Assembly (NCBI GenBank): GCA_008632985.1
Contig: QPGO01000044.1
Span: forward strand, 248,001-312,000
From: Psammoneis japonica
Lineage: Eukaryota
Direction of reading: 5' to 3'
DNA length: 64,000 nt
Each line of letters starts with the position of its first letter. Position 1 is the stretch's first letter. The notes beneath the pieces are model-generated. The model saw only the letters and a program-made list of their open reading frames with translations, made no database searches and had not been told where the DNA came from. A program made the position numbers and the translations under genes. Below, piece after piece: positions 34,697 to 58,801 of this stretch.

Positions 34697-34799
34697 TTGT
34701 TCCAAATGAATGGCTTGAGCAGCGAGGCTTTATGATATGACCCGCAACAAAAAATCAGAAATGGACACTGAACCTGTGGGGGGGGGGACTCATCGCGGC

Positions 34800-36510
34800 A
34801 AAAATTTAAAAAAAAGAAACACGACTGAGGTGAGAGACACAACATACACATGACCGAACATCTTTATCTTTCTCGTGGATTTTGAAAAATCAGCTCGTCG
34901 ACCGTTGAAAGTTTGGTGCGTGCGTTGAGATGATTCACGGTTTTTGCTGGGGAAATGCGGATTGCGAGCAGCAGACTGCTGAGTGCACACTGCATGCCAG
35001 TGTGCGCCAGCAGGAGGTGGTTTTTGAAGCGTTGAGAAAGAAGACAAAATGGTTTGTTCGTGTCACATGGCTCACTGCACACCAGGGGCAGCTTCCAGGA
35101 AAGCACACGTGCTGCAGCGCAACATCACACAACTGTTTGTCTTTCATTCCACATGGTGTGTGTCATCACCAAAAAGGTTGCAAATGACAGAACATTGATT
35201 GTTCTTGAGCAGCGTGATGCTCTGCACAGCATTTGCTTCTCACCAGTCATCCTGAACAAATGCGGCGCACATCAAAACCTGACAACAACACAGTGGAGTT
35301 GTGAGGAGAGACTGGGGCAACAAGGTCACAGCCAGCAAAGCCCATTGCATCAGCTCTCCAACATCTAACACACTTCTTGATGCCACTGCTGTGCATTGAA
35401 AAAAGCAAGCATGAGATGCCTCGCTCTTCTTTTTTGCAGCATGAGAGGCAGAGCTTGTTTCACACTAGTGCTGCTGCACCCAATGTCATTTTTATTGTCA
35501 TGCAAAAGCAGATTCAAGCATGTTTAATTGTGAGTTTCCATTGTTGCACAGTGCATGTGCATGGTTGGCATGCATCTGGAATGTGGCCATTGCAGTGGCA
35601 AGTTTCAGTCCAGTCGCACACCTTTCAGCCCTGGGAATGGCCCAAAAAAAGTCTTGTCTGCATCTGAGAGGGTTTTGGAATGGAGAGCATTGGGTGTCCT
35701 CATGTCAAGGCTGTGTGCCAAAGCCCACCTGACAAAATGCCATTGTGTCAATCCCGCTGCCATTCAATCGGGTGTCATCTCAAGGCCCAGCAGCTGACAA
35801 TGCCATGTTGTGCCAGCCACCCCGCTGCCATGTAAACTGCACATTTGAGCACCTCACTTGCCTTGTGGGACAACACCTTTGCTTGCCTTCATTTGTGAAC
35901 ACACCAAATCATGGATGTGTGTTGACCCACGCGCGGCTCTTCCTCAAGACTTGGGCCAACAGAGCTCTGCACACAAGCTCGGCTCAGTTCACACATGCTC
36001 AGCAATGAAACACAACATTTGTCTTCAACATCCGAACAAATGACCAAGTTTGCAGCACAGTTTTGCACACCTCTTGGCTCTCAAGGTTTTTGAAAAATAA
36101 AAAAATGCTGCCAGCAACCAAAGCTTGTTGAGTGGACAGAGCCTGACAACAACTGCAGGCCACCACAAAACAGTGCAAAATGCCACCAAAGTCATGAAGA
36201 AATGCACATGCACAGCAAGTGGTGCACGACAAAAAAGTCAACATCACAGCCCAGCAGCATGAGAGGCCCCACCCGCACACAGAGCAGCAGCACATCAGAG
36301 CATGTGTTGTCAGCTGCCACCACCTTGGTTGACTGCACTCTTGCTTTGAGGCTTCAGATGTTGGATGCAAGCATGCACAATTGAGCTCACAATGATCGCT
36401 GCAAAAGAGACAAAAGTAAAAAAAATGGTGTCAACAGTTCTGTTGCAGCGCATCACATTTTGGACAAAGAGTGTGATTTGGGACGGACCACTCGAAAAGT
36501 TTTGAAAAAA
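34800..36510 (-). mobile_element. Degenerate repeat block, possibly a hAT transposase remnant
   Basis: TpA-depleted block. The minus strand near 35510-35550 reads ..NSQLNMLESAF, resembling the hAT TRWNSxxxML motif. No TIRs established. Confidence 0.35.
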
Positions 36511-37625: not shown

Positions 37626-38198
37626 TCTCCTTGATTTCCTTGGATAATACTATCAACACAGAACGCTGTCCTCACCGCCGCCTTGAGCCTTCTTCATTCA
37701 CAACGCAAGTTGTTATCGTTGGTATTTCTCTTTTTCTGTGACGTTCAAAACGAACCCTGCAATCAAAACACACTACCGTAACACAGCCAGGGTGGGTGAG
37801 GCGGGTGCGGAGTGATGATTAATTCGGGCAAAATGTCGGACAGGCGTACATCCAACTAATGTTATTTGCAGTATTTGAATAGAAGATTTTAAGTTATTTA
37901 TTTTGGTATTTTGCATAATTAAAATTCTATTTAGATACGGCAATTTCTATTACCGTAGCAGGCCCAACCCCGTGCGCCTTGCCACTTGCTTTTGCTGATG
38001 GTGGACAGACTCTAAAAAATGCATCATACTGTACCGTACATAGGGCCCTACCAGTACATACCGTACCGTAGGTACAGCCGGCCAGTCCATTGATTCCAAA
38101 ATCTCCACATATCCAGCGCCATCATCGCAAGGACCTCCGCTGTCGTTGTTGTCACTGCGTTATTGCTCTTGTCGGTACTACCATATCCATCCATAGCC

Positions 38199-38706
38199 AT
38201 GAGCGCCTCCGAAGTTGCCCAAGCGTTTGTAAATCACTATTACCCCACGCGTGATCAGAATCCTGATGGGGTTGCTGGTCTATACGTAAGTCGTTGTTGT
38301 TGTGCGTTGCCGCATTGGCAACGCCCTATGTATCCACGTAGATTTCACGTGGATTTGAAAAAAAATCATCGGCGATATGCCTTACCCTGCATGCTGTTGT
38401 TCTCTGCTTTTCTCACAGAACCAGACTTCCATGTTGACAGTCGAAGGCGCTCAAGTTCAGGGCTCAGCCGCTATTGTGGAAAAACTCAAAAGTTTGGGTC
38501 AGGTCAAACACACGGTCAAATCGATGGACGTGCAGCCGTCCACGTCGGATTCTGCCATGCTTGTCGCTGTGACGGGCGCCATTCAAATGGGCGAAGGTAA
38601 TCCCAATCCCTTGCACTTTTCCGAGACCTTTCAATTGGTCAGTACCGGTGCCGCGGGAAGCTTTTATGTCCATAATCAGTTGTTTCGACTGCATTATGGA
38701 TTGTAA
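38199..38706 (+). CDS. NTF2: Nuclear transport factor 2; intron 38286-38418
   Basis: MSASEVAQAFVNHYY...LY|NQTSMLTVEG...DVQPS...FSETFQL...FYVHNQLFRL; GTAAG...CAG intron in phase 0. Confidence 0.93.
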
Positions 38707-39370
38707 GAACGCGTTTTGTTGAGCAGAGATTACATGATGTGGAGTGTAAAAAGCACACAGTGTTATTGTCGTTGTTTTGTTTCGACAATCATTGATGTTG
38801 GGCGTTAGAGAAATGTGATATTTGTCGACTACTTCTGGAAGATTCGACCTAACACTATAGAAACTAGGGAAATCGTCGCAGTCGGTTGTGCACACTTCTC
38901 ACTTTTTAGTTTCGAATAAGCGGATTCTCGGGCTCCTATACTACGACAACAGTCTGAGCGTGGCATAGTCTTGCTTCACAAGAAGCGGTCACGGAGCTTA
39001 TCTTTATGTCGCTACTTGTGAATGAATTTTGGAACCTTTGCTGCCCCAGTCTATGCCGCGCCTCCAAATGACATCAAAATATGCTGGCTAACAGAATATG
39101 ATTTCGGCATAAGTACCGTACCACTTGTTGGGCTTGTATAGTTCCTTCCCAAAGGGAGTCTGGATGTGTATTTGCGGTTGTTCCTCTTGTCAAAGATGCT
39201 TCTCGACGGTCTACTAAAATTTGTTTTACAATCTTACCCAAACCTAAGTGATTTGAACAACAGCAACAGGACTGCAAAACCTCGGGCGTTGACATAGTAG
39301 CACTGAATTAACTGAAGCCTCCCTCCAAGAGAGGTCGTGTTGCACTCTACCCATGTCGCTGCTACGGCTC

Positions 39371-41065
39371 TTACGCGTCGAGTTTCAGCAAAGAACTTCT
39401 TTTTGGAGTTTGAAAGATAGCATGATATTCCAACATGAGTCTGTATGTGTAGCACTGTAGATCCTCTTGTCGAAGGTGCTTTTCGACGGTCCATCTAGCG
39501 TGCTTTACAATCTCGGCTGCAATCTTTGGATGAGCATGCGCCCACTCTACCTTTTCGACTAGATCACTCTGATCGTACTTGACAGGAATGTAATCCACCC
39601 AGGGAACCACCCGCTCGGAAAACCATTCTTGAAAGGCGGTCGATTTGAAAACGAGACATCCCGAATACAAGAGTTTAGGAAAGCGTTCGGTGAAAGCTAG
39701 GAAAAGCAAGACGTGAGATTGGACACATGAGAGAATGCGAGATCATTGCGACATGTAAAATGAAAAAGCTAGCACAAGGTGTAACGAACCAACGCCATCA
39801 ATGTCCAAAACATACTTGTGCTTTTCAATATCGTCGTACGTAATCCGGTCTGCGACTCGATATTTCGGTTCCAGGATACGGGGGTTGTTTGTAACAAAAG
39901 CGAAATCAGCAATGACAGAAGAGTTTGGAGCAATAGGATGAGCACCCTTCCCGGCATATGTTTCAATCATTTGAAACCTGGGGCCACTGCCCCACTTGGA
40001 TGTTGGCGAACCTCTCCATATGATAACGTCGTCGCGGTTGTGCCAATCTGGTCCTTTTGGCCGTTGATCCGCAATGCTCGTGCCTTCAGTGTAAATACTC
40101 CCAATGTATGGTAGCAAAAGGTCTCGAGCGACAGTGTCATGGACTGGTTGCAATGCCTGTGTCCAGTTGATTGGATTGTCAAAGGTGCCATAACCTTGAT
40201 TGGGATTCTTTAACTGGTGATCCCAAGAAAAGATGGGATATTTACCGTTGCTCGGTACTTTTCCTTTGTCGTGGAGGTTGATGACAAATTTGGTTCGAAT
40301 GGGTGGTTTATGTTCCACCACATGACGAAACAAATAGCCTAAACGCTTCTCCACCTTTGGCCTAGCACCTTTGAACTCGTTGTTCTTCCCGGCAGAAAAT
40401 TTCTCCACAGACATTGTGTTATTCTCGATAGAAAAAACAATGTGGAAATGTGTATAATTGCCGGCTCCGGAAATGGCATCCTGCAGTGAAAGCGACGAAT
40501 TGCGAAATGGTGCGAGATGCTGATCGATTGTATCGTAGAACCTAGTTGTTTCGCATTTCTTCTCGAACGCAAACGCTAACCATTGTTTCAGAGTGTTCGG
40601 AGGCTGACGTTGATATCGCCTCCAGTAATCTTTTTGAAATAGATGCCAGCGACGTTGCTCAGGAGATAAGTTATCGTATGAACTCTTGGTCGCGCTGACA
40701 TTTATCTTGTGGGTTTCTTGCAAGGATGATTCCTCGGAGAAAGTATCGCTCTTGACTGTCTTGTTGGTGACCTGCTCATTGATAGCGTTTACTCCTTTCG
40801 CGCTGACGTTCATCTTGTGGGTTTCGTGCAAAGATGATTCCTCGGAGAAAGTGTCGTTCTTGACGGAGCTGTCGGTGACCGCGCTGACGTTCATCTTGTG
40901 GATTTCGTGCAAAGATGATTCCTCGGAGAAAGTGTCGTTCTTGAAGGAGCCGTCGGTGACCTGTTCGTTGATATTATAGATTCCCTTCCTCGCTCCAAAA
41001 AGCGTAAAGACCCTGAAAATTAATAGGCTTGTGGTTAAATAAATACTCAGATAAACCCACTTCAT
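39371..41065 (-). CDS. Glycosyltransferase family 90 (CAP10/POGLUT-like); intron 39789-39697
   Basis: N-terminal TM; IWRGSPT, KYVLDIDGV|AFTERF..LL.SGCLVFKS, EWF..RVVPWVDYIPV; stem has three ~27-aa repeats (NDTFSEESSLHE.HKMNVSA). Confidence 0.9.
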
Positions 41066-42049
41066 ACTCAACTGTGTTGTGCGGCGGTAACAAAAAGAGA
41101 CAATTATGCCTTCTCTATGTTGTGAGTGATGGTGGTTCGAGCGAAAAAATGGAGCGGCGCATCTGTGGATATAATTGTTGATCAGTAACGAATGTCTTAT
41201 TTACAGTAACTTTCCCTTATAAATATATCCAAATATGAATACATATGTTGATGCCTGTATCATGACCACAGAACATTCTAATTCGTGCGTTGCGTTGAAG
41301 GTGGCGTTGGGTCGCGTTTCGCGTTGGCATGGCGCGCTCGCTACACCGTGCGGGCATGTTGCTCAAAACGCGCGAATTTCCGCGACAACATTTTCTGTGT
41401 TAGACCGACTCAGAGGGACAGTACACCCAATTCCTGAGGGACACGACACGCATACAAGTGCCATACACAGACACATAATCAATCGCACACAACACGCACA
41501 ATTTCCAAGGGACACGAAACCCTCACAAAGTTTCACCAAGTCAATTTGCACGCAGCAAACTGCAGCAGCACAATGATGCGAGCCGCCGGTGTCCCACTTT
41601 ACGGCGTGATATCTCAATGATACTTTCACCGATTTTCCCGTTGCTTATTTCATTCTTAACATAAATTGCACAATACATCCAATGACTTTGATTCCATTGT
41701 GTGTCATTGTGAATTGTGGATTTCTGTTTTGTTTGAAACCATGCAGCAATTTCAAATTTGGAGAAGCGCGCACTAGGGAAAGCGTGTACGAAGGATGCAG
41801 GTTGTGCAGCATTTCGATTCCCAATGGTCGATCCGAAACTATTGGCAGTGTCACACCATCGTATGTCGTGTGACATGTGATAGAGCATGTGATGTAGTGG
41901 TTAAAATTAAGACTCCTACAATGAATGCCAGTGGTGCAAACAGCAAGCTAATCTGCCGTCGATCCGAAACTGCCAGTGGTGTCGCATGATAGAGCATGTT
42001 AGGTTGTTAAATTTGAGACTCTTACAATGAACACTGGTGATGCAAATAG

Positions 42050-43450
42050 CATGCTAATCTGCTGTCAATGTGACTGGAGTTTTTAAGCCGCCGCCCTCTT
42101 GCCCTCTTTCTCAATCTTGTTCATCATCGTTTGCAGTTTTTTCCAATGCCGAAACAACAGCTCCCACTTTGTTTTCCAATTTGGATTTTCCATCAATAAC
42201 CTTCCTCTCCTCACTTGTGCTAGCTTTGAAGCTGCGAGTTGATGCTGCCTTCTTTTCATCAACCAGCTTGTTGCACAAGGGCACGGCTTTGTTGTGCTGC
42301 TCAACCAAATTAAAAACATGCTTGAGAGACACGGATTTCAATGTCTTGCAAGCCCTGTCCCACCAAGCCATGTAGTTGTCATCATCCTTTGCTTGAGGAC
42401 GATTGCTGCCATTGAGACACTCCTTCTCCTCACTTGTAAACAGCGCACGCGGGCCCTTGCTTTTAGAGATTTGTTGAGTTCGTCATGCTCGGATTTTTTG
42501 TAAAGTGCTCCATGCCCCAACTTCTTCTTGAGCACCATGTGCACACCAGAATCATGTTGTGCCTGCGACTTGGGCTTCCAATGAGTCCCCTTGCGAGCAC
42601 CTTCGCGTTCAATCTTGTGCTCCATTGAGAAAGCACAGAATTGCCTCATCAATTTGCTGCAGTTCGGCACAGTGAGAGTTTCTCCACGCAGATGCTTTCG
42701 TTCCAACTGATGGACCAGTGGATGTCCTTTTTTTTGGCAAAAACGTCAAATGCTGCGACCGCCGTCTTGTAGCCATCTTCGGTTCGGTCTGCTTTGTCTT
42801 GCATTTCTGCGCATGCTTGGAGCATCATGGACTCGTCTTCGCACTCTTCTGCCTCATCCTCATTTGAATCTTCCAAAAGGAGGCCTCAAGCTCAGTGGCA
42901 AGTCGATTGACGCGGTCCACCTCACTCGCTTTTGCCTCGTCGCTCGGCTCGTCGCTGGACTTGTCCTTCTTGCATGGATTGTTGTGATGCGAGCAGAAGA
43001 TTGTGCCTGCTGCAGTGGTTGCTGGTGGTTCCAACTTCCAACCTGTCCTGGGCCTGTGCAGCTGGAGCATCTTTTTCATTGATGAGAGATGGCATTGTGG
43101 ACAAATGATGCCGACAGCGTATGCCATGCAAGTCCAATCGCAACGAATCGCAACAATCGCAATGAAAATGGTAGACTTTAGCTGGCTGGAGGCCATGGTG
43201 CAACAGCAGCAACGAGCGAGCGGCGGCAGTGCGGTGGTCGGACCATCTGTCGTCCGTCGCAGGGTGACCGGTCTGGTCGGCGGCTCAACCCGTCGATTTC
43301 CGGCCGATTTGCGAGGGACCCGAGGGACACCCTGTCCCTCGGGGGCGCGCTTCGCGCGTCCCTCCCGCTCCGCGGGACAAATGTCCCTCCAGGGACACTC
43401 CGCGTCCCTCCAAAAAAAATTTTCGCAAAAAACATGTGTTGCCATCATGG
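42050..43450 (-). mobile_element. Degenerate coding remnant in a repeat block, family uncertain (possibly Crypton-like tyrosine recombinase N-terminus)
   Basis: Frameshifted pieces TEDGYKTAVAAFDVFAK, LMRQFCAF...SQAQHDSG..LKKK; GC-rich gggaca/tgtccc palindromes at 43315-43410. Confidence 0.25.
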
Positions 43451-44094
43451 CCATTATGAGTTAGCCAGGGTGGGGCTAGTTGGTCACGCACGTTTGGGTT
43501 CGATGTGACTGTGCAACTAGCCATGCCCTGGAGGAAAAGCTGTTGGTGGATTGGGTGGCGCGCGAGTGCCGGCAGCAACGCAACAAAGCAAAAAAACACG
43601 GCGTGGGTCAAAAAACATTGTAAAATGACATGACAACAAGCGATGAGAAGAAACCCAACTTGACCCAGGAATGAAGCACACAAATGTTGTCCAGCGGCTT
43701 TGATCTTGTCTGGAAATGCACTCTCGTAGATCCGCGAACGGCACTCACGTTGCTTGCCATGGTGTTGTCATGTGTTGTCGTGTGCTGTTGTTGTGCGAGA
43801 AGGACGGGGCACCAGGGCCAACTAATTGCAAAGTTTTCTGCGGCAATCAGATTGCAGTCAGTCGATTGCATCGCTGTGGAACAGCAACCATCCAACTGCG
43901 GTCGCGCAGCGATTGCACGGTCTGACAAACAGACTGCAATCGGGCTGCAATCACCCTGCCGGCCAGGCGTGCCCCCTGCACAGGGGCGCTCTCTGCACAA
44001 GAGCACACTCCGCGCAGGAGAAAAGCCCACCGCAGGCAAAGAAATCAAGCTGTTTTGCTTGTTTTGGCGACGCGCTCCAGGTCCAGGTGGGACC

Positions 44095-44366
44095 TGACAG
44101 AAATTGAAGGCAAATGGCAAGAATTCAAACAATGACTCCTTGCTGCTGTCTAAACAGCAGATGAGTCTCCGCTCAGAGACCGTTGCAGGAGCCGAAAGAC
44201 GTGCAAGTCGGTGCAATCGGGCTGCTGTTGTCATTCTTGTGAGCCTTGTGGCTCGAAAGCAAACTGCATCGCGCGCGAACGCGCGGAACTAAAGCACACA
44301 AAACTGTGCACGGCAAACTAAACAGCGCGATTTCGCGCGCACCTGAATCCTGTTCAAATCCTGTCA
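44095..44366 (-). repeat. 3' LTR of the Copia element (272 bp)
   Basis: Matches 48781-49056 apart from four substitution sites and one 4-bp length difference. Confidence 0.96.
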
Positions 44367-44419
44367 CTCCCCAGTTTGCTTGAGGAGCCACAGAAACAGG
44401 TTCGACTTTGGATGGAATG

Positions 44420-47400
44420 AAGTTCCAGAACATGAGGGGGCGGAGAAGGTCCCAGACTTGGGAGTGACCCCAATGCTTGCTGAGAAAGTCAGCAGGGTTG
44501 CGGGAGCCTTCGATGAAGTGGAGCTCAAGGTGACCAGAGGCAATTGCCTCACGCACACGGTGGAACGACAGTGCGGTGTGTCACTTGTGTGACTTGGAGT
44601 GCGGGATGGTGGCACTGTCTACAACCGACTTGTTGTCACCGAACATGCAACTGACATTGCGGATCGGGATGCCAAGGTGGCGCAGGGTGATGCACAGGTC
44701 GACAATCTGCTCGACACAAGTCCTTGCGGCAACAAATTCAGACCCGCAGGTCGCAGTCTCCACGGTGGCTTGCTTCTTGGAGAACCAATCAGCCGGGAAT
44801 TTGTTGAGGAAGTGGAGCATTCCCATGATGGAGCATCCGGTGAGCATGCAATGGCACAAGTTTGCATCGACGCAGTGGGTGGCAGTGACGAACTTGCCAA
44901 GGGGCGGTGGAGCATCCTTCGGGATCATCTCCTCTGCTTCGCTGTGCATGGAATGCATCCATTCACAGGCCGGAGCAGGGAGATCCGAGTGGTCGGGCTC
45001 TTCCGTGCGAACGCAGAGAGCGCCATGTCGCATCTTGGAGAGGTGCCCACAGATGCGTTTGGCACGATCCAAGTGGCCTTGACGGGGCGCAGCTCGGAAG
45101 CTAGAGAGTGACATGACGGCCGTGGTGATGTCAATTCGACCAAGGGACACTGCCCATTGGAGTGAACCAACAAGAGACTGGAACTTGTGAATGCCATCGG
45201 GCCCCAGCAGTTCGGAAGTGTCCAGTTCGGGGTGGTCACCCTTCTCCAGAGGTGACAGGGCGTTGGTGGCAGGTTTCTCCCCAAACAGTCGGGTGCAGCT
45301 GTCGACCATGCGCTCGATGCACTTGCGCGGAGACAGGCACAAGGTGCCATCGGGATCCCGGGAAAAGTCGCAGCCCAGATGGAACTCAATGGGTCCCGCA
45401 CCCTTGAGCTTGAACTTGCACTTTTCCGCGAGAGTGTCGACGAAAGATTGAGGGTCCTTCACAGCAATGGCGAGGTCATCCACGCCGTTCCTGCGCATCC
45501 AAATGTCAGGTTCGGTGCGGCAGGGGAAGAAGCCTTCAGCTCGTGGGCAGTCGGCAAAGCGCTCGTGCCAGCGGAGACCGGAGCTGCGCAGTCCATGCAG
45601 GGCCTTGTGGATGACAAGGATGTGTCCTTCGAGTTTGCCAAATTCGGGTCCGGCTACAATGTAGAGCTTCTCCTTGGTGGTGGCTTCAAGGTGGGCATTG
45701 CCAATGTTGGTGGCCCATGTCTCCAACTCGTTGAGTTCGGCCAGGAAAATCATCAGCCGAAGGCCACGGAGGGAGACTGCTCCGGAGTAGACACCATCGA
45801 TGGGTACGTCCGTGAGGTGCCCATCGGCTGCGAGTCGTGCCTTGTGGCGACCGTCGTGTTTCATGTCGCACACCAGGTGCACTTGGATCTTCTTGTGTCC
45901 TGCAGGAGGAGTGGAAGACTCGAAGGGCCCGCAGTCATGGAAGACTTCGTATTCTTCGAGTTGGTCCATCTCGAGATTAGTTGCGTCTCCCCATTTGCAG
46001 TTGCCCTTGCGTTCGTCTAGTGACATGGCATGTTTGCAGTTCCGGGGAACTTTGCATCCGCACTTGCAGCGAGGTGCAGTGCAGAAGGAGCGAAGCTTGG
46101 CTTGGTTGGCCATGCGGAACAGCTTCTTCTGGTGCCTTGCGATGGTGCGGAACTGCTTCCAGCCATCAGTGTCGAGAAGTCCGTTCTCTCGTGCATAGAT
46201 GGCACAGGTGGCGGGGTCGTCCTTGGCGATGATGGCAAGAGGCTCGGACGTGATCTCCCCACTTTCCCATTCAAGCATGATGTTGTAGCTTGAGCTTTTC
46301 CAGGTTGGGTCATGAGGCTTCAGAGGTCCTTCGTGTGACACAATGCGTCGAAATTTCCAAACAGCAGTGTCTTCGTCTTCTTGCTCAATGTGATTCATGA
46401 TGTCGTTGCAGGCAAGGACTTCCTTGCATTGACCATTGTTGACAGAGCAGACGAACTCAGTGAGCTCGGGATTGCCGTTCACTTTCCATTCATGGTCTTC
46501 GACGGCCTTGACGATGCGAGCTCTGTGGCGTTGTCCATCCTCTTGTGGCTGCATGAGGAAGGTGCGTCCGATGATGTCTTGCGGATCGAAAACTGGCATC
46601 TTGGGTGTCCTGATCTCCCCATCAGGAGAATCGACGGGGTTGTCATCATGGTGAGATTTGATGATGGGTTCAGGTGGCTCCCCATCAGGAGGATCAAGAC
46701 GCAGGTTTTGAACGGCAGGATCGGTGGTGGCGGATCATACGTTGGACCAGCAGAGGATCTTCTGAGTCTCGTCAGAGAGAATCTTGAAGGTCATCTGGTG
46801 GCCGACGTGCTCAGCAATGCCAACAAAGCGTCCACGCAACTCACGGGATTTGGACAGCCAATCGGAGTCATCGAGGTGGAAGTGCACGGGTTCCCACCAG
46901 TGAAAGCGAAGCAATGGGCTGATGTCCGGGGTGGAGCCAGTGAGAGTCTCGAGGGGTGTGCGCCAGTGGAGACGTGGGGACGCTGCATGGTTGAGCATGA
47001 AGCACACGCACATGAGCGCCAGCAGCCATGTGTGGGCAGGCGAACCGAAATGATCCATGACAGTGTTCGCCATGCACTTCACGGTCTGGTGTCGACGCTC
47101 GGCAAAGTTTTGGTGTTGCTGGTGAGGCTCACTTTGCCAGCTGGAGATGAAGAGGGCTCGCAGGATCCCGAGCACCTTGTTGCTGATCTCAACTTGAGCA
47201 CGGTCGCTGATGAGTTTGGATGGGGCACCACACTCACGGATCTGATCCTCGAGTGTGTTGACAAACTCTTTGTCCGTTTTGGTGCCGCAGACGTCAGTGA
47301 CGGCAGACTCGGTGCCAACAAACAGTTGGGCGCTGGTGCAACCAGAGTCGACGGCCGGGGTGTCGGCACAAACGGTGTCAGTGGCGATGGGCTCGTTGCG

Positions 47401-48780
47401 GCGGTGCACATTAAGGGCGGGGTTGGGCGATTTGCAGGCCTTCCTGAGGTGTGCACCGGTGGGCATGCGGGCGCACTGCGTGGTGCAGTCAAAAGTACGA
47501 TGGACCGCATCGGCAGGGAGGAAGCCAAAGCAAGGCCAAAGAGACTCGAAGGGGGGGTCCTTGGGCTGCACAGTGTGCTCCGGGGGCGGAACGTCGTCGT
47601 CCTTGGGGTCAATCGCGTGTAGATGACACTCGTAGAACACATCGTCGTTCGGAATGAGGTGATCATCGAGGGCGGACGCGTGATCGGCAGACAAGGAAGC
47701 GGACATGATGGTCTTGTTGACAACGACACGATGACAGCAGTTGCCGCATTCGTCAAATGGGTTGGCAGTGGGATCGTCCTGCAGGTCAGAGATCGCGTCG
47801 CACCACTGGTCGTCGTCAGTGACAGAGTGATCAAGGACGGAAGGATCCCATGTGTCATCACCGGTGAGGATGACATGGGGCAGGGTGTCCCATTCGGCGT
47901 CAGTGCAAGGTCGCATGGCAACATGAGGCAGGCCGCCCTTGATGTCAATGGGGATGACACAGCCATCAGGGGTGGCAATGCGTTGCAAGCCGTTGGGCAC
48001 CTTGACAGAGCGATCGTTGACATCCTGTTTGCACCATTCGAGCTGGCCGCAGGAATGAATGGTCTTGCCCTTTCCCGCATGTGTGCACTGATGGAGGATG
48101 GCGATGACGGGACCACGCTGGGTCTCAATGATGGCACCAGTGGTGACAATGGGGATGTCCACCAATTGATGGTCGTCAATGCCCTGAACGTCGACTTGGC
48201 AAGAGGTGCGTGCAATGACGCGAACGTCATCGCCAGCAATGCCGCCGTTGGCCCCACGATCGACTGGAGCACCAGCGCGTGTGGAGCGATGAGCAGAGGC
48301 AGAGTGAATGACATTGTGGTTGTCAACGCGGCGGTGAGTGCGGCCGTCAAGTTCTGTGTCATCGGCAGGAGCTGGCGAGGTAGAGGGAGCGGCGGATGGC
48401 CCTGGTCGACTGGCGTTGGGGGCTTGGTTAGGAGACAACAGACGTTGCAGATCACCGGGTGGCAGTGGCTTGCGCTTGGTGAGGTGCTCCAGGATGGGAT
48501 TGTCCAAAGTGGCATCCACATTTGGAGCGGGGTCACCAGAGTCAGCAGGAGTCTTGTTGGACAAGTTGACATCACCGTCACTCCCAAGGCGTTGGTCGTG
48601 AAGGTTGGCCGCAACGGACTCATGGCAGTTGCTGGCTCGCGGGTTGCGGGGAGGCGGACGAGAATGCTCGAGGATGATCGCCTTGGAGGAATGGGGCAAC
48701 GAATCCCAAATCCGTTGGTGGTCGGGAGGGAGACGTTTCCATTGGTCACCAGTGAGGCTGGGACCACGGGTGCAGGCATC
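44420..48780 (-). pseudogene. Copia gag-end/pol polyprotein, inactivated
   Basis: ORFs 46735-48699 and 44581-46599 plus the RNase H tail. TGA stops lie at positions normally Arg (SNV*SA, HK*HTALS). The segment before the RT YVDD motif is missing (WMRRNG-VDDLAI). Confidence 0.92.
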
Positions 48781-49056
48781 TGACAGAAATTGAAGGCAAA
48801 TGGCAAGAATTCAAACAACAACTCCTTGCTGCTGTCTAAACAGCAGATGAGTCTCCGCTCAGAGACCGTTGCAGGAGCCGAAAGACGTGCAAGTCGGTGC
48901 AATCGGGCTGCTGTTGTCATTCTTGTGAGCCTTGTGGCTCGAAAGCAAACCACATCGCGCGCGAACGCGCGGAACTGAAGCACACAAAACTGTGCACGGT
49001 AAACTAAACAGCGCGCGACATTTCGCGCGCACCTGAATCCTGTTCAAATCCTGTCA
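48781..49056 (-). repeat. 5' LTR of the Copia element (276 bp)
   Basis: Direct repeat of 44095-44366. Confidence 0.96.
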
Positions 49057-50066
49057 GGACCTTGCACTGCTGAACTGTGACATCGACAGTTTTTTGAATT
49101 GAGTTGTGTGTCGCGCACGCACATTTCTACGTGATTTTGGCAAAATTTTGCATCATTTTACAGTGCAATTGTCGGGCGATCCACTCAACAACTTTTAATG
49201 TTTTTTTCTTCTGCGCCATTCTCGAGTGTCTCAAGAATGGCACAGGGCAGGCACGTTGTCCAAAACTTTGAGTGCAAACAGAGACACATGTGCCACAAAC
49301 TTGGCCATGTGTTTTGTGTTGAAGACAAATGTGTCCATTGACCAGAGTGCGAACTGCAGAGCTCGCACGTGGAATTCCACGGGGCAAATGTCACAAAAAG
49401 TCCCACCTGGGGCTGGAACCCGTCTGGCCACAAAAAGAGCTCGAATTTCAATTGCGACGTGTTCCAGCCGCACGTGAACCAAATCGTGCACTAAAACGAC
49501 ATTTGCGCGATTTTTGCGCGGTCCCTAACTTACGATCGAACTTTCACCACCAAAAGTATAGATTTATACAAATATAAATGTTCTGCAACACTAACAAGAC
49601 TCGTGTGAGTATTGCAATATCATTGTTATTGTGCTGTCTATGTTTTTCATTGCGTTAAAAGATTCGTAACACACGGATGATTTTCGGCGAAAATATTGCC
49701 GTTATTTGGATGTTAACTAAATATATCTTTCTACGATGCTACTTGGTAGGTTTTCTACCTACAAAAAAATCTCAGTATAAATCTACTGACGTACAATCAG
49801 TATTGAGTCTACTGAGGAAGTTTATGATACATATCCCATGAGGATTTGAATACCCCTCAAAAAACTATATAAATGTCCATACTCTAGAAGCTTATAAAAG
49901 TCAATCCGTCTAAGTATTTTTATTTTAAAATGCTATATACACTAAAATATACATAAATTACATTCAAAATCCGATTGTCGTTTTGTGCGTCACCTGGGAC
50001 TGGAACACGTCTTGCAATCAATTGCAACAGTTGATTGTGATTGCGACCTTGGCTCTTTCCCGACAA

Positions 50067-52375
50067 TCAGGTCATGACGGGTTCCAGTCCTGGGCGGGAC
50101 TTTTTGTGACATTGGGCTCGTAGAATTCTGCGTGTGAGCTCCGCAGCAAAATTGTCAAGCAATGGACATGTGGATGATCGCCAACAGAAAAAGAGGCAAT
50201 TTTGCGAACGCATCTCCTCCTCCACACTTGAAGCACACATCAAAGAATGCAGCCAGTGCATTTTTGTTGTCATGAGTGCAGACAACAGAAAGCCTTTGGC
50301 TTCGCAAAACAGGCAGTGTGGAACAAATTTTTGTGACAGAACACACAGAAATGTGTGCCAAAACATGCGACAGATGACAAAAAATGATTGTGTCACAGTT
50401 CAGTGGTGCAAGGTCCCACCCAGAGCTGGAACGCGTCTCATTGCAATCAAGTTTGCAACAGCGATTGCAGTCAAAGTGAGGCTGATTGCAGCCGATCCCA
50501 GCAATTGGCCAACACTGCGGGGCGCTGTTTTGCCAACAGCCACTCTGTTTTGGCAATGGTGGATGTTCAGCTGTGTGCAATCTGGGAACAATTTGAGAAG
50601 CGCTTCGCGACAACCCTGTTCAGACCGTCAAACAGAAATTTTTTTGTTCAGATTCTAAAATGTGTTTCGGGGTGTTTCTCACTTTTTTGAATTTGGGTGT
50701 GTGTCTTTGCAAGACCTTGGAAATGTCAATGACATGCAAAACCCTGAGAGACCAACATGAATTCATCTTTCATGTGGACCACATGCATTGTGCACCGGCA
50801 GAAAATCCACCGCATGTCAGCTCACTCAGCAGCAATTCCATGTGTGTTTTACTTGCATCTCACACACGCACACACGCCTGCACAGTCCAATGACCACGCA
50901 CACGTGCATGAGATGATGTGTCAATGGGAATCATCCGGGTCCTGAGAGTCATCACGTAGAAATTGTGTGGGAGAGCACTAAAAATGATTGTTGTCAGTCT
51001 GTCCATCTGTCCATGTGCGAATGTCAACTTGTCGGGAAATCAACTGAAATGCTGTCTGATTGACAGCATTTTGATTCACACAGTGAAGGCCAATGCTGTC
51101 AGTCAGACGGCATTTCAATTCAGTTCCCGAAAAGTTGTTAGCTCCAATCACTCTCTCGCATGACATTGTGTGCATTTCCACACGATTTTGTGTTTTTCCT
51201 TGTGCAAAAGATCAATTGTGACCCACGCGACATTTTCAAATGATTCCCATTGACTCGAATCACATTTTGTTGAAACGCCACCTTTGCTCAAACACGTCAT
51301 GTTTGAGAAAACGGGCTCAATGTTTGAGGAATTGCTCGAACTTTGCGCAACTTTGAGCACTTGCTCAAACTTGCTGCTCAAACTTGGCAAGTTTGAGCAA
51401 ACACTCAAACTTGCACAAAGCTTGAGCAAATGCTCAAACATGTGAAATTGATGCCACCGGTGCTGCACCAGTGTGAAACCGCTGTGCAGCACTGGCCTGC
51501 CACACCGCACATGCTGTGCGCACTGCGACTGCTGCTTTCACTGCATGCAGGTGTCAGCACAAATCAAGTGCAATGGAAATGAGGTGTCAGCCGTCAGTGA
51601 CAAACAACAAAATCACAACCATCACACCATGGTGACACAAAAGATGATTTTTCTCTACGACAACACCTTCAAGAAACCCAACATTCCATTGAAAGACATG
51701 TGATGCAAACTCATGCACGAAAATGTTGAAAGTTCCAGCAGAACAGGCTTGTTGAGGGGGCTGCGGGGACCAACAAGGAACAGTGTCACGCAACAACATT
51801 TTGTCTTTTGTTTCAATCAAAAACATTTTTCAAAGCATGCCTTGGCATTGACATGTGCTAAAATGTCAACATTCACTGCAAATTGCCAAAGCGCCTTCGA
51901 TCGCTCCAAAGAGGAAATTTTCCATTCATTGCCAGTTTGTGCCAGGCTGCATGGAAAAGTGCAGCCGACATGCTCCAGCTCCAGGTGGGACCTTGCACCA
52001 CTGAGCTGTGACACAATTGCTTTTTGTCATCCGTTGCATGTTTCGCGTGCACATTTCTGCTTGTTTTGTTGTGAAAAATTGTTCCACACTGCCTGCTTTT
52101 GTGAAGCCAAAGGCTTTCTGTCATCTGCGTTCTGCATTTGTGACAACAAAAATGCACTGGGTGTGTTCTTCAACGACTGAAAAGAACATGCCCGGACATG
52201 CTGTGAAGAATGTGCTTCAAGTGTGGAGGAGGAGATGCATTCGCAAAATTGCCTCTTTTTCTGTTGGTGATCATTGATGTGTTCATTGCTTTGTGATTTT
52301 ACTGCGGAGCTCGCTCGCAGAATTCTGCGGGCCCAATGTCACAAAAAGTCCCGCCTGGGACCACAACCTGTCAGC
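50067..52375. mobile_element. Non-autonomous element with ~400-bp inverted terminal repeats; a third copy of the same repeat (44065-44094 + 49057-49430) is the Copia target
   Basis: 50067-50450 is the reverse complement of about 51960-52375 (gggcgggactttttgtgacattgggc vs gcccaatgtcacaaaaagtcccgcc). Confidence 0.75.
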
Positions 52376-52399
52376 CATCACATTTTCTCCCTCCAACAA

Positions 52400-55300
52400 T
52401 CAACTGCATGCACAAACAAACAAGGAGCAAAGTGCAATGACAGGCAATGGCAATGCAACGATGTCATCATGATGCAAGCAGGGAGGAGACGCAAGCGTCC
52501 AGTGGCAAGAACAGCGGTGCGAGCAACCCAACATCCAACATTTGGGCAAGGCCATGCTTGCGGCCATGGCTTTTGCATTGCGGCCGTGGCCGCCATGGAC
52601 TCGGGGCAGAATCAGCCCTTGTCATTTGGTGGCCACAGCAAAGGTGAGAGCATCCAAGCAATGGGACAATTTTTGGTTGAATGCATCAACGACGAGAGCT
52701 TGGCCATCTTCGTTGATTCGAACGACAAGGAAATTGTCGTGCAAAAGTGCTCTGAGGGTGTGATGATGCGTTCATGCTCACGCTCTGTTGCCGCTGTTTC
52801 CAATTTTCTGTTGGAGTGGAGTGCACAAGAAACCAAAGTCAGTTTTTTTTCTGCTCTAGATCTCTGTCAGTGCTGCACTCTCTGCCAGCAGCAGCAATTG
52901 TGGTCAAGCAATTCAGCCCACTTGTCAGTTTGTTCTGCTCCAGATGTGTCAGCACTGCACTCTCTGTCAGCAATTGCAGTCAAGCAACCACACTTTGAGC
53001 CACAGCACTCAGTGTCTCTAAAGCAATGTGATCCACCCCCTTGCAGATCATGCCCAGAAACAGTTCACTCAACAACAGACCCATCCGAAGTTGCACCAGG
53101 ATTCATCCGCAGAGCACTGGAAATCAGGATCTCAGATTTTACCGGGTCGTCAAGAAGCACAGATGGATGATGCCCGGCTCTCACTTCATTGGCTTCACTG
53201 ACATCGGCAAATGGGTGAGCATTGGTGTCAACCACTCCAAGCATTTCTCCAGCTCCAATCACCCAGAGACCTGTCAATGAGGCACTCATGCATTTTCATC
53301 TCTGGGCTTCTGTGAGGGCGAGAAGGGGTGACCAGATCCAGCGGGTCTTGGCTTGAACCACCAGCAGGAGGACAATGGAGAAAGCTGCCCTCATGAGGAC
53401 ATGGATGAATGGCCTGCCACAGTTCCTCAGATTTGGATGGTCCACGGGCTGCAGCAGGAAATGATGCACCAGCTGTGGCACCTCTGTGATCAGTTGCAAC
53501 CTGCTGGACGGTGGGCGGAACAGCGTTGGCAGCCCCACCACCCCGTTGTGGTGCAGCCACCCCATCAAAGGGGTTCACCACATTGCTGGGTCCAATCTCA
53601 AATGACGCTTGAGGCAATCCAAACTTGTCCTGCTTGTGACACCCAAACTGGGATTCGCGCCATTGATGGCATTCATGTGACCAAGCATGCGTGCCATCTT
53701 GGTCGCCAGCACAGAGAATGGCTTTCAACAAGACACAACAAAAGACATGAGTTAAGAGAAGCAGAAAAGAGCACTGCAAAAGCACAACACTGCGTGTGAT
53801 TGCTTGCTTTTGTTGCTGCATCGCATCCACAGTGGCAAACTGGACAGAGGCAGTCTCCATTCTCGTCCAAGCCGTGACGTTCTCCAGTGGCATCATCAAT
53901 GCATTTGAGCAGGCATTCTGCAACAGGAACTTCTCCAGTGATCAATGGCCATTTCCATTTGGCTCATCAACAGTGGAATGGCCACAGTGGTGACAATTGC
54001 GGTTCACCTCGTCCTCCGGTGTCGATCCTTCAAACAGAAGCTCTTTGGCCATCAGAGACACCACCTTGGCCTGTTCTTCATGCAATGCTGTGTGGTGAGC
54101 TGCAGTTTTCTTTGATGACACAAGATCCTTCACTTCAGCAGTGGCCTTTGTCACTGGGTGTGCATGCCCGGGCATGAGTGGTGCGCAGCTCTTTCTTCCA
54201 CACGCAATCAAGTTGGCACACCATTCAATTCCAGCAACATGCTGTTGCAGTGGGAACAGCTCCAAAGATGGTCTTGTTTAGAGATGCAACAAACAAAGGA
54301 GTGCATTTCCAGTGTGCTTCAATGATGGGAGCATTCTCCATGCCAATCCTCTTCTCGACTTCCGCTTTGTTTGCAATGAAAATCACGGTGAGCTTCTTCT
54401 TTTCTGCCACCATGCCACAGCTCGGTTTCCTCAGCTCGTCAAGCATTTTGTTCTTGGAAGGTCCTTCCACATCACAATGCTTGACATCACATCATGTTTC
54501 GGTGTTTGACTCGCATGCATGGACGCAGTTGTGCATGGCGTTTGTGGCCATGGTCGATCTGCTGTTGCGGCATGTTTTGTTTTGCCCAAGTTTTGCCAGT
54601 CAAGCAGCGCGCAGGAAGATTGTGTGTCTTTCTACGTGGCCTGGTGCAAACAAGCTGATGAAAGGAAATTTTCCTCTTCAGGGCAATCAAAGACACTTTG
54701 CGCACGAAAAGTGACAAGTGTTTGGCAATTTGCAGTGTTGTTCCAAGTCAAAAACATGTCAAATGGATCATCAGCAAGTGCCGGCATTAGACCATCTTCA
54801 TGTTGTCGTCACAGCCCCGTGCGTCATCGTGCCAACATGGATTTTTTGTTTTTTGCACATGTTTGAGCAATTGCTCAAACTTTCATGACCGTTGAATGTT
54901 GCTCAGTGTGGCATCCATTGTGATTGCGCGCACGTGCGTTTGAGCAGTTTTCCCACATGGTGCTGGTGGGTTCTTGTGTCGACCATCAACGCACGCATGA
55001 GCATGAATCATCATCTGCTCTGCCGCTCTTGTTTGACCAGCTGGTTGGTTGTTGACCCCAACCACCACCAGTGGAACAAGATGAGACCAATGTCAGAGAT
55101 CTTCATTTCAAGAACAGCACATCACATTGTTCAAAAACTTTCATTGTGCAAATGCCACATTTTGGGCATGTCCAAGGAACAAAACCAGCACAAACTCGAG
55201 CATGCTTCTTGCATGTGTGCGCTCAACACACCCTGCCCAGAAAATGTCAGGGAGTCGTCTCTCCCATCTGTTGTGCCACTCATCACATCAATTGTGGAAA

Positions 55301-56425
55301 CCCAGTGTGCTGCCACTCCCTCCAAAAGTTTGCACCTTGTGTCTTGTGCTGCTCTGATTTTTTTCAAACAACTGCTGTTGACACCATTTTGAGATTGTTT
55401 GAGTCATGCTTTGTCAGACCCACATGATGTGCTGCAAGCAACCTCAGCTCTCTGCTCAACTGCCACAAAACTTCTGTGCACAGCCAATGATGTGTTCAAT
55501 CTTGCAGACCAGGATCTGCTTGAGGTGGGATTGTCAAGTGCCAGCCGTCATGCAAGTGCCAGCTCTCTCATGCTGTCAAGCTGGCTCATGACCACACCAC
55601 TTCCTTCTGCTTGTCAAACAAGATTGTTTTCCACTGTGGCTGACTGAACTTGACCTTGTTGCTGTCTTCATCACAAGTGTCTCTTGACAAAAATGCCAGC
55701 CATGATGTGCTCCTTTGTCATGCTCACAAAAGAGTGCCACCCTGTGCAACAGAAGCTTTTGCAAGGCTGTCAAAAGTTGCACACAACAATCTTGACACCA
55801 CATGGCACAACTCTGCTGCAAGATCTTGTGGCATTGCAGCAGCAGCAGTTTTGCAATGAACTGCTTCATCCAACTGAGTGTTGCTCCTGCTTCACTCTCA
55901 AGCTGTTTTCACTTTCAAGAAGAAATCAGTGGAGCAGCCAACATCTTTTCTGTGCAGTCATTTCTCTTCTGGCATTTGAACATGCAAGTGCACTTGCACT
56001 TTTGTGCAATTCAGGGCTGCTGTGGAACCTGCTCAGCAGCAAAAGAAAAAAAAGGCGTGCGGCCGTGGGGGCTTCTTTTGTTGAGACACAAATGGGTTTT
56101 GCATCAGCAGCAGGGGGGCTGTGTGGGATGTGAGCACAGTGCTGTGCAATGCATGGTCATGGGTGGGCCCAGTTGTTGTTGTGAGAAATAATCCCATCAC
56201 CATGACATGGAAGCACGCTGAAATTTGAGAGACATTTGCAACAGAAAAAAGACACTGGAAACAAAAAGGACGGAGCGTTCTTGGATCTGGTGGAAGATCA
56301 ACACAAGTGACAAAAGAAAAAACTTGGAAGACTGCTCAAAATGCAAAAGGATGCTAGAGACAAAAAAGAAGAACATCCAGCAGTTAAATGAAGCCACAAA
56401 GGAATCAACAATTTTCTGCTGTGCA
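52400..56425. other. Unidentified TpA-depleted block, probably decayed mobile or viral-like coding DNA
   Basis: Same dinucleotide signature as the identified TEs; protein-like fragments but no motif I can assign. Confidence 0.4.
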
Positions 56426-56461
56426 AGTAGAGCCCTCGCATTATTATTGTTGTTGTTTTTA

Positions 56462-57293
56462 CTACAACGTTTCTGCTGCTGTTTGTTGATTCATTGGATT
56501 TTCGGGACTCTTTTTCCACATTTGAAAAATCTTCTCCTTGTATTGTGTCAATCTCAATCCGGGATATTGTTCCTTGACGATTGGCATCATTTTTTCCTCA
56601 TATTGCCGATGCAAGGCCTTGACTCGTTTTTCCGGGTGAGCATCCGCAGAAGATGATGATATAGTCAAGGAATCGAGTGCCGCATCAATTCCACCACCCA
56701 TTCCCAATTCAGCCGCAGCCTTGTTGGCGTCTCGACCTACAGTAGTAGAGTTTCCAATCATGCTGTCGGTATTGGCCAAGAGGGGGTCTTGTGGTTGTTG
56801 TTCTTGAGTCTTACTTTTGGAAGCTTGTTGTTGTTTGAGTCGTTCCTTTTTTGCCTTACTTTTCTTATCGGCAGCCGATACCAAGGCATCTTCGAGCAGG
56901 GATAAATCATTTTGTTTCTTCTTTTTCTTGGTTACCTTGGAAGCTTTCGGTTTACTGGTTCCACCCGTCTCGGCTTCTTCGGCGGCAAGCAGTGCGGCCT
57001 TTTCTTGTCGTTTTCGAGCAGCCTCATCTGCCTTGGAAGCTGTAAACAACAACAACAAAACAAATTCTGTCAGAACACAAGAAAAGTTGTGCATGCTTGC
57101 CGATAACACGTCTTTTTTTTCCCTCACCCTTTTCTTGTGCTCGTGCGGCACCCCGTGTGTTGGAACCCTTTTGCCATTCCTTGGCTTCCAATTCTTCACG
57201 TTGACGATCTTGTTCGGCTTGTTTTTTTGCCTTTTGTTCTGCCTTGCGTTCACGGCCTGCTTGTGCCTTGGAATTCGTTGTTCGTGGTGGCAT
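56462..57293 (-). CDS. CCDC124: CCDC124/Lso2-Oxs1-like coiled-coil protein; intron 57127-57040
   Basis: MPP...NSKAQAGRERKAE...EWQKG; HPEKRVKA...YPGLRLTQYKEKIFQMWKKSPENPMNQ. Confidence 0.9.
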
Positions 57294-57605
57294 GATGGTG
57301 TAATTGTTATTGTTGTTTGTTGTATTGTACTGTTACTGCTGTTGTCGTTGTAGTTGTTTACTGTAATGTTGAATGTGATTGGAGTTGTTTTTCAAGTCGA
57401 TAAGGCTGTGTCATCGTCGCTTCGTTTTGCTCATCGGCTCGTGTTTTTCTTTGCGCGGAAAACCCGACAATGGACAGACTATGGCGTCACCGTACCACGT
57501 TTTCTACACAGAATAGTAGTACGTACAATATCTACTGCATTCTACACGAGATCCACAAACATCATGCGAGCTCCATCCAATCATTTTTTTTCTCGAGCAT
57601 TAACC

Positions 57606-58801
57606 ATGAGCGGTCGTTTTGGTGGTGGCCGTTCTCCAGGCCGTGGCCGAGGTCGTGGTTCACCGGGTGGTAGAGGATTTGGTGGTGGTGGTGGTGGACG
57701 AGGTGGTGGTGGTCGTGGTGGAAGGTGTGTACTGATGTAATTGTGAATGATTTGTTGTAGTTGACGTACAGACGACTAAACAACGTGAATTTGCAATTAA
57801 TTCTTTTGTTGGTTTCTGTAATAACAGAGGAGGAAGAGGAGGCCGCGGTGGCGGTGGTCGAGGTGGTGGAAGAGGCCGTGGTGGTGGTGGTGGTCGAGGT
57901 GGAAGAGGAGGAAGAGGTGGTGGCATGAAGGGCGGTTCCAAAGTCGTGGTGGAACCTCATCGTCATGAGGGAATCTTTGTCGCTCGAGGCAAGGAGGATG
58001 CACTCGTGACGCTCAATTCGACACCGGGCGTAGCCGTCTATGGTGAAAAACGAATCAGTGTCGATGGACCACCTGCCGCAGATGGAACTACCAACAAGGT
58101 AGAATATCGTGTATGGAATCCCTTTCGATCCAAGCGTAAGTTTTGCGAGAGAAACAGAAAAGAGTTTTTTGAAGTTCAGTATGTGATCTCACCCTCTCAA
58201 TTCCTATATTCACAACACACAGTCGCCGCCGCCGTCTTGGGCGGCGTCGATCACATTTGGATCGAACCCGGTCCAAGTTTTGTACATTGGCGCCGCGGCC
58301 GGCACGTCCGTTTCACACGTGTCGGACATTGTCGGTCCCAAGGGTGCCGTTTATGCCGTGGAATTTTCGCACCGCCCCGGTCGTGATTTGATCAATGTTG
58401 CCAAATCCCGTACCAATGTCATTCCCATTATCGAAGACGCCCGTCATCCACTCAAATACCGCATGCTATTGGGTATGGTGGATGTCGTCTTTGCCGATGT
58501 CGCCCAGCCCGATCAAGCGCGGATTGTTGCATTGAATAGTCATTACTTTTTGAAGAATGGTGGACACGCTGTGATTGCCATCAAGGCGAGCTGTATTGAT
58601 TCCACGGCGGCACCCGAAGCCGTCTTTCGACGAGAAGTGACCAAGTTGCAATCGGAAAATTTCAAACCACTGGAACAATTGACATTGGAACCGTACGAAC
58701 GAGATCATGCTGTTGTTATTGCCGAATACAGACCATCGAAAAGAAAAAGAAGAGTCAGTAATAGTGTAGTGAGGGGTTATTGGTATGAGTATAATATATG
58801 A
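57606..58801 (+). CDS. FBL: Fibrillarin (rRNA 2'-O-methyltransferase); two introns; apparent frameshift near 58270
   Basis: RGG domain, [75 protein letters not shown]. Introns about 57725-57826 and 58136-58222. Confidence 0.95.

Follow-up and report, generated by a model that had tools for sequence, protein, structure and literature searches.

The repeat DNA of the diatom Psammoneis japonica bears the marks of what would be a mutation process directed at a single dinucleotide, TpA. The evidence comes from a 64-kb window of contig QPGO01000044.1 (the whole stretch of DNA analysed, to which all positions given here refer) and centres on a Copia-type element on the minus strand at 44095–49056. 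We propose, with a probability of roughly 0.75, that this element has undergone targeted TpA → TpG/CpA hypermutation, partly after its integration. The process would be locally targeted and strand-symmetric, and would generate T·A → C·G transitions only at TpA, in the Copia element as well as in the other repeat zones of the window.

The clearest record of this process is found in the two long terminal repeats (LTRs) of the element, which lie within a target-site duplication, GGACC, at 44090–44094 and 49057–49061. The LTR at 44095–44366 (minus strand, 272 bp; the 3′ LTR in the orientation of the element) contains 3 TA and 20 CG dinucleotides, and the LTR at 48781–49056 (minus strand, 276 bp; the 5′ LTR) contains 3 TA and 21 CG. 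Both start with TGACAG and end with CTGTCA, as direct repeats with TG…CA termini. A global alignment of the two intervals exactly reproduced the four dinucleotide differences and the one 4-bp length difference listed in the original prediction, and yielded no others. The differences are TG at 44133–34 versus CA at 48819–20, TG at 44265–66 versus CA at 48951–52, TA at 44290–91 versus TG at 48976–77, and CA at 44314–15 versus TA at 49000–01, together with an additional CGAC at 49016–19 in the 5′ LTR. In total, the pair therefore differs by six substitutions at four sites and one 4-bp indel. All six substitutions are transitions, all interconvert TA, TG and CA, and both directions of change (to TG and to CA) are present within each LTR. 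The same prediction described the CpGs as intact. This description is correct for the LTRs, in which none of the 20 and 21 CpGs differ, but it does not extend to the coding part, in which 12 conserved Arg codons carry CpG transitions.

A restriction of this kind is not expected from random transitions. Those that interconvert TA with TG or CA make up 53 of the 272 possible single transitions in the LTR. When six random transitions were put on both LTR copies, in a null model that was made deliberately generous by allowing transitions only, the TA/TG/CA class took all differences in 14 of 300,000 runs. Terminal-repeat pairs from five related metagenomic elements served as controls, and in these the TA class accounted for 10 of 90 events, versus four of four in the LTR pair (Fisher p = 3e-4). 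Identical contig ends of ~125 bp that resemble assembler overlaps (L011, L019, L028, L041, L052 and, at 147 bp, L050) were left out of the control count, as were the L015 pairs, which are paralogues with 65–72% identity; element L026, which has an exact 3,334-bp end repeat with 0 mismatches, adds no events. A 40-nt LTR pattern, searched for exactly in the metagenome contigs, gave no match. In the LTR pair itself, ~6 of 12 TA site-copies have been lost, whereas 0 of ~520 other site-copies have changed, and a three-class likelihood places the per-copy loss of TA in the LTRs at ~0.59. From these values we infer that the TpA mutation rate in the LTRs exceeds that of other sites by roughly two orders of magnitude or more. 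TA is kept in both LTRs at two sites, both of which lie in a CTAA context.

Because the two LTRs of an element are identical at integration, TA-class differences between them arose later, in separate DNA copies. The four difference sites would each have been TA at insertion; two would have decayed in both LTRs in opposite ways (TG in one and CA in the other), and the remaining two in one LTR only. Such independent decay would imply that the process acts at least partly on chromosomal DNA after integration. The original prediction had argued that mutation acts on DNA after insertion and that RNA editing or reverse transcriptase (RT) error before integration is not the sole cause, and this argument is supported by the TA-class LTR differences, by strand symmetry, by depleted flanks and by a second LTR-like repeat pair, all of which are described below. 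Its warning that LTR-divergence dating would be skewed also stands, since six of six substitutions belong to the hypermutable class.

The direction of change can be read from the coding part. The internal region (44367–48780, minus strand, 4,414 bp) is a single frame of 1,471 codons with two TGA stops. It has a GC content of 0.575 and contains only 18 TA, which corresponds to an observed/expected ratio (o/e) of 0.09 for TpA; that for CG is 0.80. An alignment with 25 homologues provided 691 conserved columns, 32 of which are Tyr and 659 other residues. Tyr is kept in 5 of its 32 columns, versus 574 of 659 for the other residues (Fisher p = 3e-18). The 27 lost Tyr columns contain 13 Cys (TGY), 10 His (CAY), 3 Phe and 1 Trp. 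Correspondingly, Tyr makes up 0.41% of the residues of the frame, Cys 3.74% and His 5.37%, versus homologue medians of 3.79, 1.01 and 3.71%, and the GC content of the Copia element exceeds the median of its relatives (0.575 versus 0.484). Judged by these codons, TA has changed to TG or CA, and with Cys (13) and His (10) almost equally frequent, both strands are affected about equally.

Related elements from metagenomes provide a baseline for these values. Across 79 of them, the median TpA o/e is 0.69 and the median Tyr retention is 0.89. Two of these 79 environmental Copia relatives, which come from different records, exhibit a partial form of the same scar: L077 keeps Tyr in 11 of 24 columns, with 13 changed to Cys or His, and has a TpA o/e of 0.31; L076 keeps Tyr in 11 of 21, with 8 changed to Cys or His, and has a TpA o/e of 0.33. 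The CpG o/e is ~0.75 in both. The process is therefore visible outside the Psammoneis genome and can be surveyed in metagenomes.

TpA depletion is not confined to the Copia element. In the repeat zones of the window, TpA o/e is about 0.02–0.2, versus 0.55–0.7 over the host genes (those for an amino-acid transporter, Maf1, Ccdc124, fibrillarin and GT61), and CA/TG is raised to 1.5–2.0 across the TpA-depleted zones. The left flank of the Copia element (42200–44094; TpA o/e 0.17) is itself a repeat, with a contig depth of 800–2000 versus ~60 in single-copy bins, and has no Pfam match. The right flank (49057–49480) has a TpA o/e of 0.10. Farther to the right, a depleted zone at 50000–56300 has a TpA o/e of 0.00–0.14 and a CpG o/e of 0.0–0.7 in 400-bp windows; it is partly single-copy by contig depth and likewise has no Pfam match. 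The largest depleted zone, at ~4500–23500, has a TpA o/e of 0.05–0.3 and a CpG o/e of 0.1–0.4. Flanks outside the Copia element and zones of single-copy depth are thus as depleted of TpA as the element, or more so.

The missing dinucleotides are nearly balanced by those gained. When 32.6 kb of depleted zones were compared with 26.2 kb of host zones, with the host-zone densities as the reference, a deficit of ~1169 TA and one of ~861 CG (2030 together) were obtained, versus an excess of ~2158 TG + CA. The TAs that survive in the depleted zones are unevenly distributed among sequence contexts relative to host-zone TAs: TTAA is enriched 4.1-fold and CTAA/TTAG 3.0-fold, and ATAG/CTAT (0.29), ATAC/GTAT (0.38) and GTAC (0.42) are under-represented. 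These contexts suggest a sequence preference that would be wider than the dinucleotide.

The large depleted zone holds an older example of the same pattern. Between two LTR-like direct repeats on the plus strand (~14233–14560 and 18851–19235, 69% identical), a weak RVT_1 match (16965–17342) is followed by a weak rve match (18181–18771), also on the plus strand, in the Ty3/gypsy order; the whole remnant spans 14233–19235. The repeat pair exhibits 16 TG|CA doubles (TG in one copy and CA in the other), 7 CG-class and 2 TA-class differences, 16 other transitions and 13 transversions. Repeat pairs within depleted zones contain 11 and 16 TG|CA doubles, versus 1 and 4 in host-zone pairs; the pair 'tand19789' was left out of this comparison because its two intervals overlap. 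The same zone also contains a tandem array at 19757–20670, with a period of ~176–180 bp and units that are 72–77% identical, and a single N at 7901, which is either an assembly gap or a masked base.

Because TAA and TAG stops disappear along with TA, both strands are left with long open frames that are spurious. In the zones 4000–24500, 33900–36300, 41400–44094 and 49057–56400, the two strands contain 144 frames that run from stop to stop over 90 amino acids or more, and 2 of these 144 have a Pfam match. Depleted zones would mislead gene finders, and old transposons within them would be invisible to domain searches.

Other copies of these repeats were examined in Logan contigs compared with the window. 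The Copia family is very abundant: its summed contig depth, which is not a copy number, is 66,000–147,000, versus 57–97 in five bins over host genes (38.0–41.3 kb). At the LTR sites, the states of other copies are available from one loose-end contig (loose end at 44263) and from position 44213. The contig, which belongs to another copy, has TA at 44265–66, where the two LTRs of the window have TG and CA. At 44213, both LTRs have TG, and TA occurs in 32,863 of 55,191 depth units (~60%) of other copies. Among the differences listed for the left flank, contigs of other copies show 16 transitions relative to the window and no transversion, with 10 of 14 events in the TA class; among those listed for the host zone there are 8 transitions and 11 transversions (p = 2e-4 versus the left flank). 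Over all places at which the window and the contigs differ, 370 transitions and 61 transversions were counted. In single-copy parts (38001–41400 and 52300–58000), the contigs of run X1 differ from the window by ~0.25–1.3%; X1 may represent another haplotype or strain, or else the window may have been polished differently.

Depletion of CpG follows a course of its own. CpGs are intact in the LTRs, mildly reduced in the Copia element (o/e 0.80) and nearly gone in the older zones (0.1–0.4). By this comparison, CpG decay is a second process, separate from TpA loss; it would be a slower conversion of CpG to TpG/CpA, presumably driven by methylation, that sets in later in these zones. The window would then read as a time series, from a fresh unmutated insert, through a Copia element with TpA gone and CpG kept, to old zones without both.

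The fresh end of this series is an AT-rich insert of 510 bp at 49481–49990, which has a GC content of 0.33, 56 TA and a TpA o/e of 0.97. It sits between two TpA-free zones and is bordered by CACCTGGGRCTGGAACNCGTC copies, some direct and some inverted, with hairpin-forming repeats at 49404–49476 and 49991–50100. The insert is abundant (bins at 23,000–27,000 depth), and contigs of its other copies are ~97.5–99% identical. The surrounding repeat occurs in other copies without it, with joints at 49395>49991 and 49449>50013. The insert would seem to be a mobile element of unassigned type, still young and unmutated. Since this high-copy insert is unmutated, copy number alone would not trigger the process.

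With respect to chemistry, the pattern most likely reflects deamination, by a TadA/ADAT2-like deaminase, of the adenine that lies 3′ of T in DNA. Such an enzyme would be directed to silenced or foreign DNA.

Several observations weigh against targeted hypermutation that acts partly after integration. The informative sites number only four and come from one LTR pair, and the state of other copies is known for one of these four (44265–66). TA-class polymorphisms could have entered one LTR with no mutation in situ, by ectopic gene conversion or because the abundant copies were mixed when the sequence was assembled or polished. The TG shared by both LTRs at 44213 may mean that some TA loss predates insertion, or it may have arisen in parallel. 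Finally, loss of Tyr codons in the body of the element (23 of 28 columns with Tyr, Cys or His as the outcome) exceeds loss of TA in the LTRs (6 of 12; p = 0.056), a gap that the CTAA context of the TAs kept twice may explain.

The alternative that takes up most of these observations holds that the TpA changes were made before integration, by editing of RNA or cDNA, and that the LTR differences stem from ectopic conversion or from reads of near-identical copies that were mixed in assembly or polishing. The family is very abundant and its copies are polymorphic at the same type of site (44213 and the contig with its loose end at 44263), and the excess of transitions among window–contig differences (370 versus 61) and the greater loss of Tyr in the body than of TA in the LTRs both agree with it. 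The strand symmetry of the outcomes (13 Cys versus 10 His, and both directions within each LTR) argues against it, since editing alone would yield a single type of change, TA>TG for sense RNA and TA>CA for minus-strand cDNA. Nor does it account for flanks outside the Copia element, zones with no retroelement signature and zones of single-copy depth that are equally or more depleted, or for the 16 TG|CA doubles in the second LTR-like pair. Furthermore, in the chlorarachniophyte Bigelowiella natans this signature appears de novo in integrated DNA that is single-copy, according to the main text of a 2026 preprint (bioRxiv 10.64898/2026.01.13.699255). We therefore consider this alternative unlikely. 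In its simple form, in which ADAR- or APOBEC-like editing of RNA or cDNA acts alone, it was rejected because the changes are strand-symmetric, unlike between the LTRs and present in the flanks.

The remaining explanations are far less probable. If the TG|CA sites had been CG, deamination of methylcytosine on opposite strands in the two LTRs would generate them; CG>TG and CG>CA changes do occur in the element (the 12 conserved Arg columns, both stops among them), and CpG is largely gone from the older zones. Two such double hits are very unlikely, however, when 0 of the 20–21 CpGs per LTR has changed on one side only. The dinucleotide missing from the element is TpA (o/e 0.09) and not CpG (0.80), another copy has TA at 44265–66, and the TA|TG and CA|TA sites would be left unexplained, so that CpG decay as the source of these sites is highly improbable. 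A similarly slight chance attaches to an artefact of sequencing or base calling caused by base modification of heterochromatic TpA. Such modifications can lead to systematic miscalls, but these would hit both LTRs equally, and the change of Tyr to Cys or His recurs in L077 (13 of 24 columns) and L076 (8 of 21). The X1 contigs also reproduce the depleted zones to within the 0.25–1.3% given above, although X1 is possibly the same sample as the assembly. A fungal-type process that converts C to T at CpA, such as repeat-induced point mutation (RIP), would share with the present pattern its limitation to repeats, its action on DNA, its transitions in a dinucleotide context and even the same three dinucleotides (TA, TG and CA). 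It is ruled out by the opposite direction of change, in which TpA is removed, Tyr becomes Cys or His and GC is raised (0.575 versus 0.484), and the host is a diatom; we assign it a negligible probability.

The element itself was characterized from its frame. Residues 959–1159 match RVT_2, the Copia-type RT, at 45304–45906 on the minus strand (E = 2e-14; 54 bits versus a cut-off of 31.6). More than 1,500 relatives of the frame were found, mostly polyproteins of ~1,900 residues with 50–68% identity; the closest metagenomic relative by nucleotide sequence is 67.7% identical. Pfam rve itself was not detected in the Copia frame, but a profile built from 25 relatives and the window copy gave a weak match to retroviral integrase cores at positions 912–1012 (E = 8e-4 to 3e-3). 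In homologue P0002, RVT_2 lies at about 1338–1554, that is, the integrase-core match is upstream of the RT. On the strength of the RVT_2 match, the position of the integrase-core match, the TG…CA ends of the LTRs and the 5-bp target-site duplication, the element is assigned as a Ty1/Copia-type LTR retrotransposon, present here as a degenerate copy.

Several lesions account for this degeneracy. An in-frame TGA at 46735–46737 (minus strand) occupies a column in which the homologues have a conserved Arg, as expected for a CGA → TGA change by CpG transition, and a second in-frame TGA at 44581–44583 (minus strand), also at a conserved Arg column, is likewise a CpG transition. An in-frame deletion removes about nine residues immediately ahead of the VDD of the RT motif. 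The alignment of the frame with its homologues begins at about their residue 400, immediately past the LTR, and no primer-binding site is present beside the 5′ LTR of the window copy. At the 48778 junction, the sequence of 18 contigs from other copies departs from that of the window, and by this comparison the primer-binding site and the N-terminal part of gag (the first ~400 of ~1,900 residues) are deleted in the window copy. A short purine run, GGGGAG, adjoins the 3′ LTR and falls short of a polypurine tract. The missing primer-binding site and polypurine tract thus mark a defective copy and not a separate family. No Rfam match was obtained on the 64-kb window.

The host genes of the window match those of diatoms. 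For the amino-acid transporter, the best match (59% identical) is unnamed, and the named best matches, at no more than ~50% identity, are all from diatoms (Attheya, Dactyliosolen, Stephanocyclus, Thalassiosira, Seminavis, Fragilaria, Cylindrotheca, Nitzschia, Pseudo-nitzschia and others). Fibrillarin matches diatom sequences at 89–91% identity (Nitzschia, Phaeodactylum, Mayamaea, Fragilariopsis and others), together with one plant sequence at 56%. No chlorarachniophyte was found among the best matches of either protein. By these matches, the host is a diatom at some distance from the sequenced model species, and not Bigelowiella. Two adjacent Aa_trans genes or gene pieces on the minus strand (27955–28569 and 28939–31005) are 77% identical over ~1.1 kb and exhibit an ordinary spectrum, with 106 transitions and 70 transversions among 176 mismatches. 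A tandem duplication of 370 bp in a host-type zone (1310–1679 and 1690–2059) is 96.5% identical, and its 13 differences comprise 4 TA-class changes, 7 other transitions and 2 transversions.

Among known systems, RIP in Neurospora and other fungi is similar in that it acts on DNA after integration, affects both strands, produces transitions at a fixed dinucleotide in repeats or foreign DNA, inactivates transposons and distorts LTR dating. RIP is premeiotic and triggered by homology. It differs from the pattern described here in that it changes C to T at CpA, which makes TpA and lowers GC. ADAR and TadA/ADAT2 (the latter acting at U33-A34 of tRNA) resemble the present process in their target, an A that follows T or U, and in their A>G outcome; in their known roles, their substrates are RNA. 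APOBEC editing of vertebrate LTR retrotransposons and endogenous retroviruses (PMC4866542) provides a further likeness, as deaminase hypermutation that becomes fixed in the genome. It is, however, C>U editing of minus-strand cDNA before integration, with a strand-biased G>A outcome. The process in Psammoneis, by contrast, would be A·T>G·C, and its traces are strand-symmetric, extend into flanks and are unlike between LTRs. An abundant Copia-type family in a diatom has a precedent in the CoDi/Copia-like elements described by Maumus et al. (2009), the founding paper on diatom Copia elements, in the text of which the terms 'hypermut', 'dinucleotide' and 'point mutation' do not occur (PMC2806351).

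The closest counterpart is that reported for B. natans, which is described in the main text of the preprint as follows. In mutation-accumulation lines, two integrated viral regions accounted for 231 of the 302 nuclear mutations, and 230 of these 231 were A>G or T>C, all of them, by the authors' account, on TpA and at ~1000 times the background rate (bioRxiv 10.64898/2026.01.13.699255). The targets were integrated DNA of nucleocytoplasmic large DNA viruses (NCLDV) and virophages (Mettrop et al., bioRxiv 10.64898/2026.01.13.699255), and reverse transcriptase and DDE domains were over-represented among low-TpA genes. Its authors propose a DNA-acting ADAT2-like adenine deaminase and cite DNA activity of ADAT2/3 (bioRxiv 10.64898/2026.01.13.699255). 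As in P. japonica, T/A>C/G changes occur only at TpA and yield TpG or CpA according to strand, foreign or mobile DNA is affected and host genes are normal, and clustered TpA depletion is accompanied by a gain of CpA + TpG. The two cases differ in host, a chlorarachniophyte (Rhizaria) versus a diatom, and in the type of evidence: the rate was measured directly in the mutation-accumulation lines, whereas here it is inferred from sequence. TpA o/e is 0.45 in the NCLDV region, versus a deeper 0.02–0.2 here; moreover, the affected DNA in P. japonica includes LTR retrotransposons, and the pattern is overlaid by CpG decay. The words LTR, retrotransposon, Copia and CpG are absent from the main text of the preprint, supplements aside (bioRxiv 10.64898/2026.01.13.699255). 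In the literature searched, TpA hypermutation in diatoms was unreported, and this preprint, its supplements aside, was the only relevant paper.

Taken with this report, our analysis probably extends the signature of TpA hypermutation, previously reported only for viral inserts of B. natans, to LTR retrotransposons of a diatom. A broader and more speculative idea, which we offer tentatively, is that diatoms and chlorarachniophytes share an old RIP-like defence, widespread in the stramenopile–alveolate–Rhizaria (SAR) lineage, that deaminates adenine at TpA in transposon and viral DNA. Such a defence would erase TA first, with CpG decay to follow; it would hide most old transposons from domain searches and invalidate LTR clocks, and LTR-divergence dating would be wrong in such genomes. 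One signature in two distant hosts would make the responsible enzyme findable by comparative genomics, and if that enzyme is an adenine deaminase that acts on DNA, it would be relevant to base-editor work. If the reading is true, targeted A·T>G·C mutation of mobile DNA would extend beyond a single chlorarachniophyte to diatoms, a dominant group among marine primary producers, in which it would strike the most abundant transposons.

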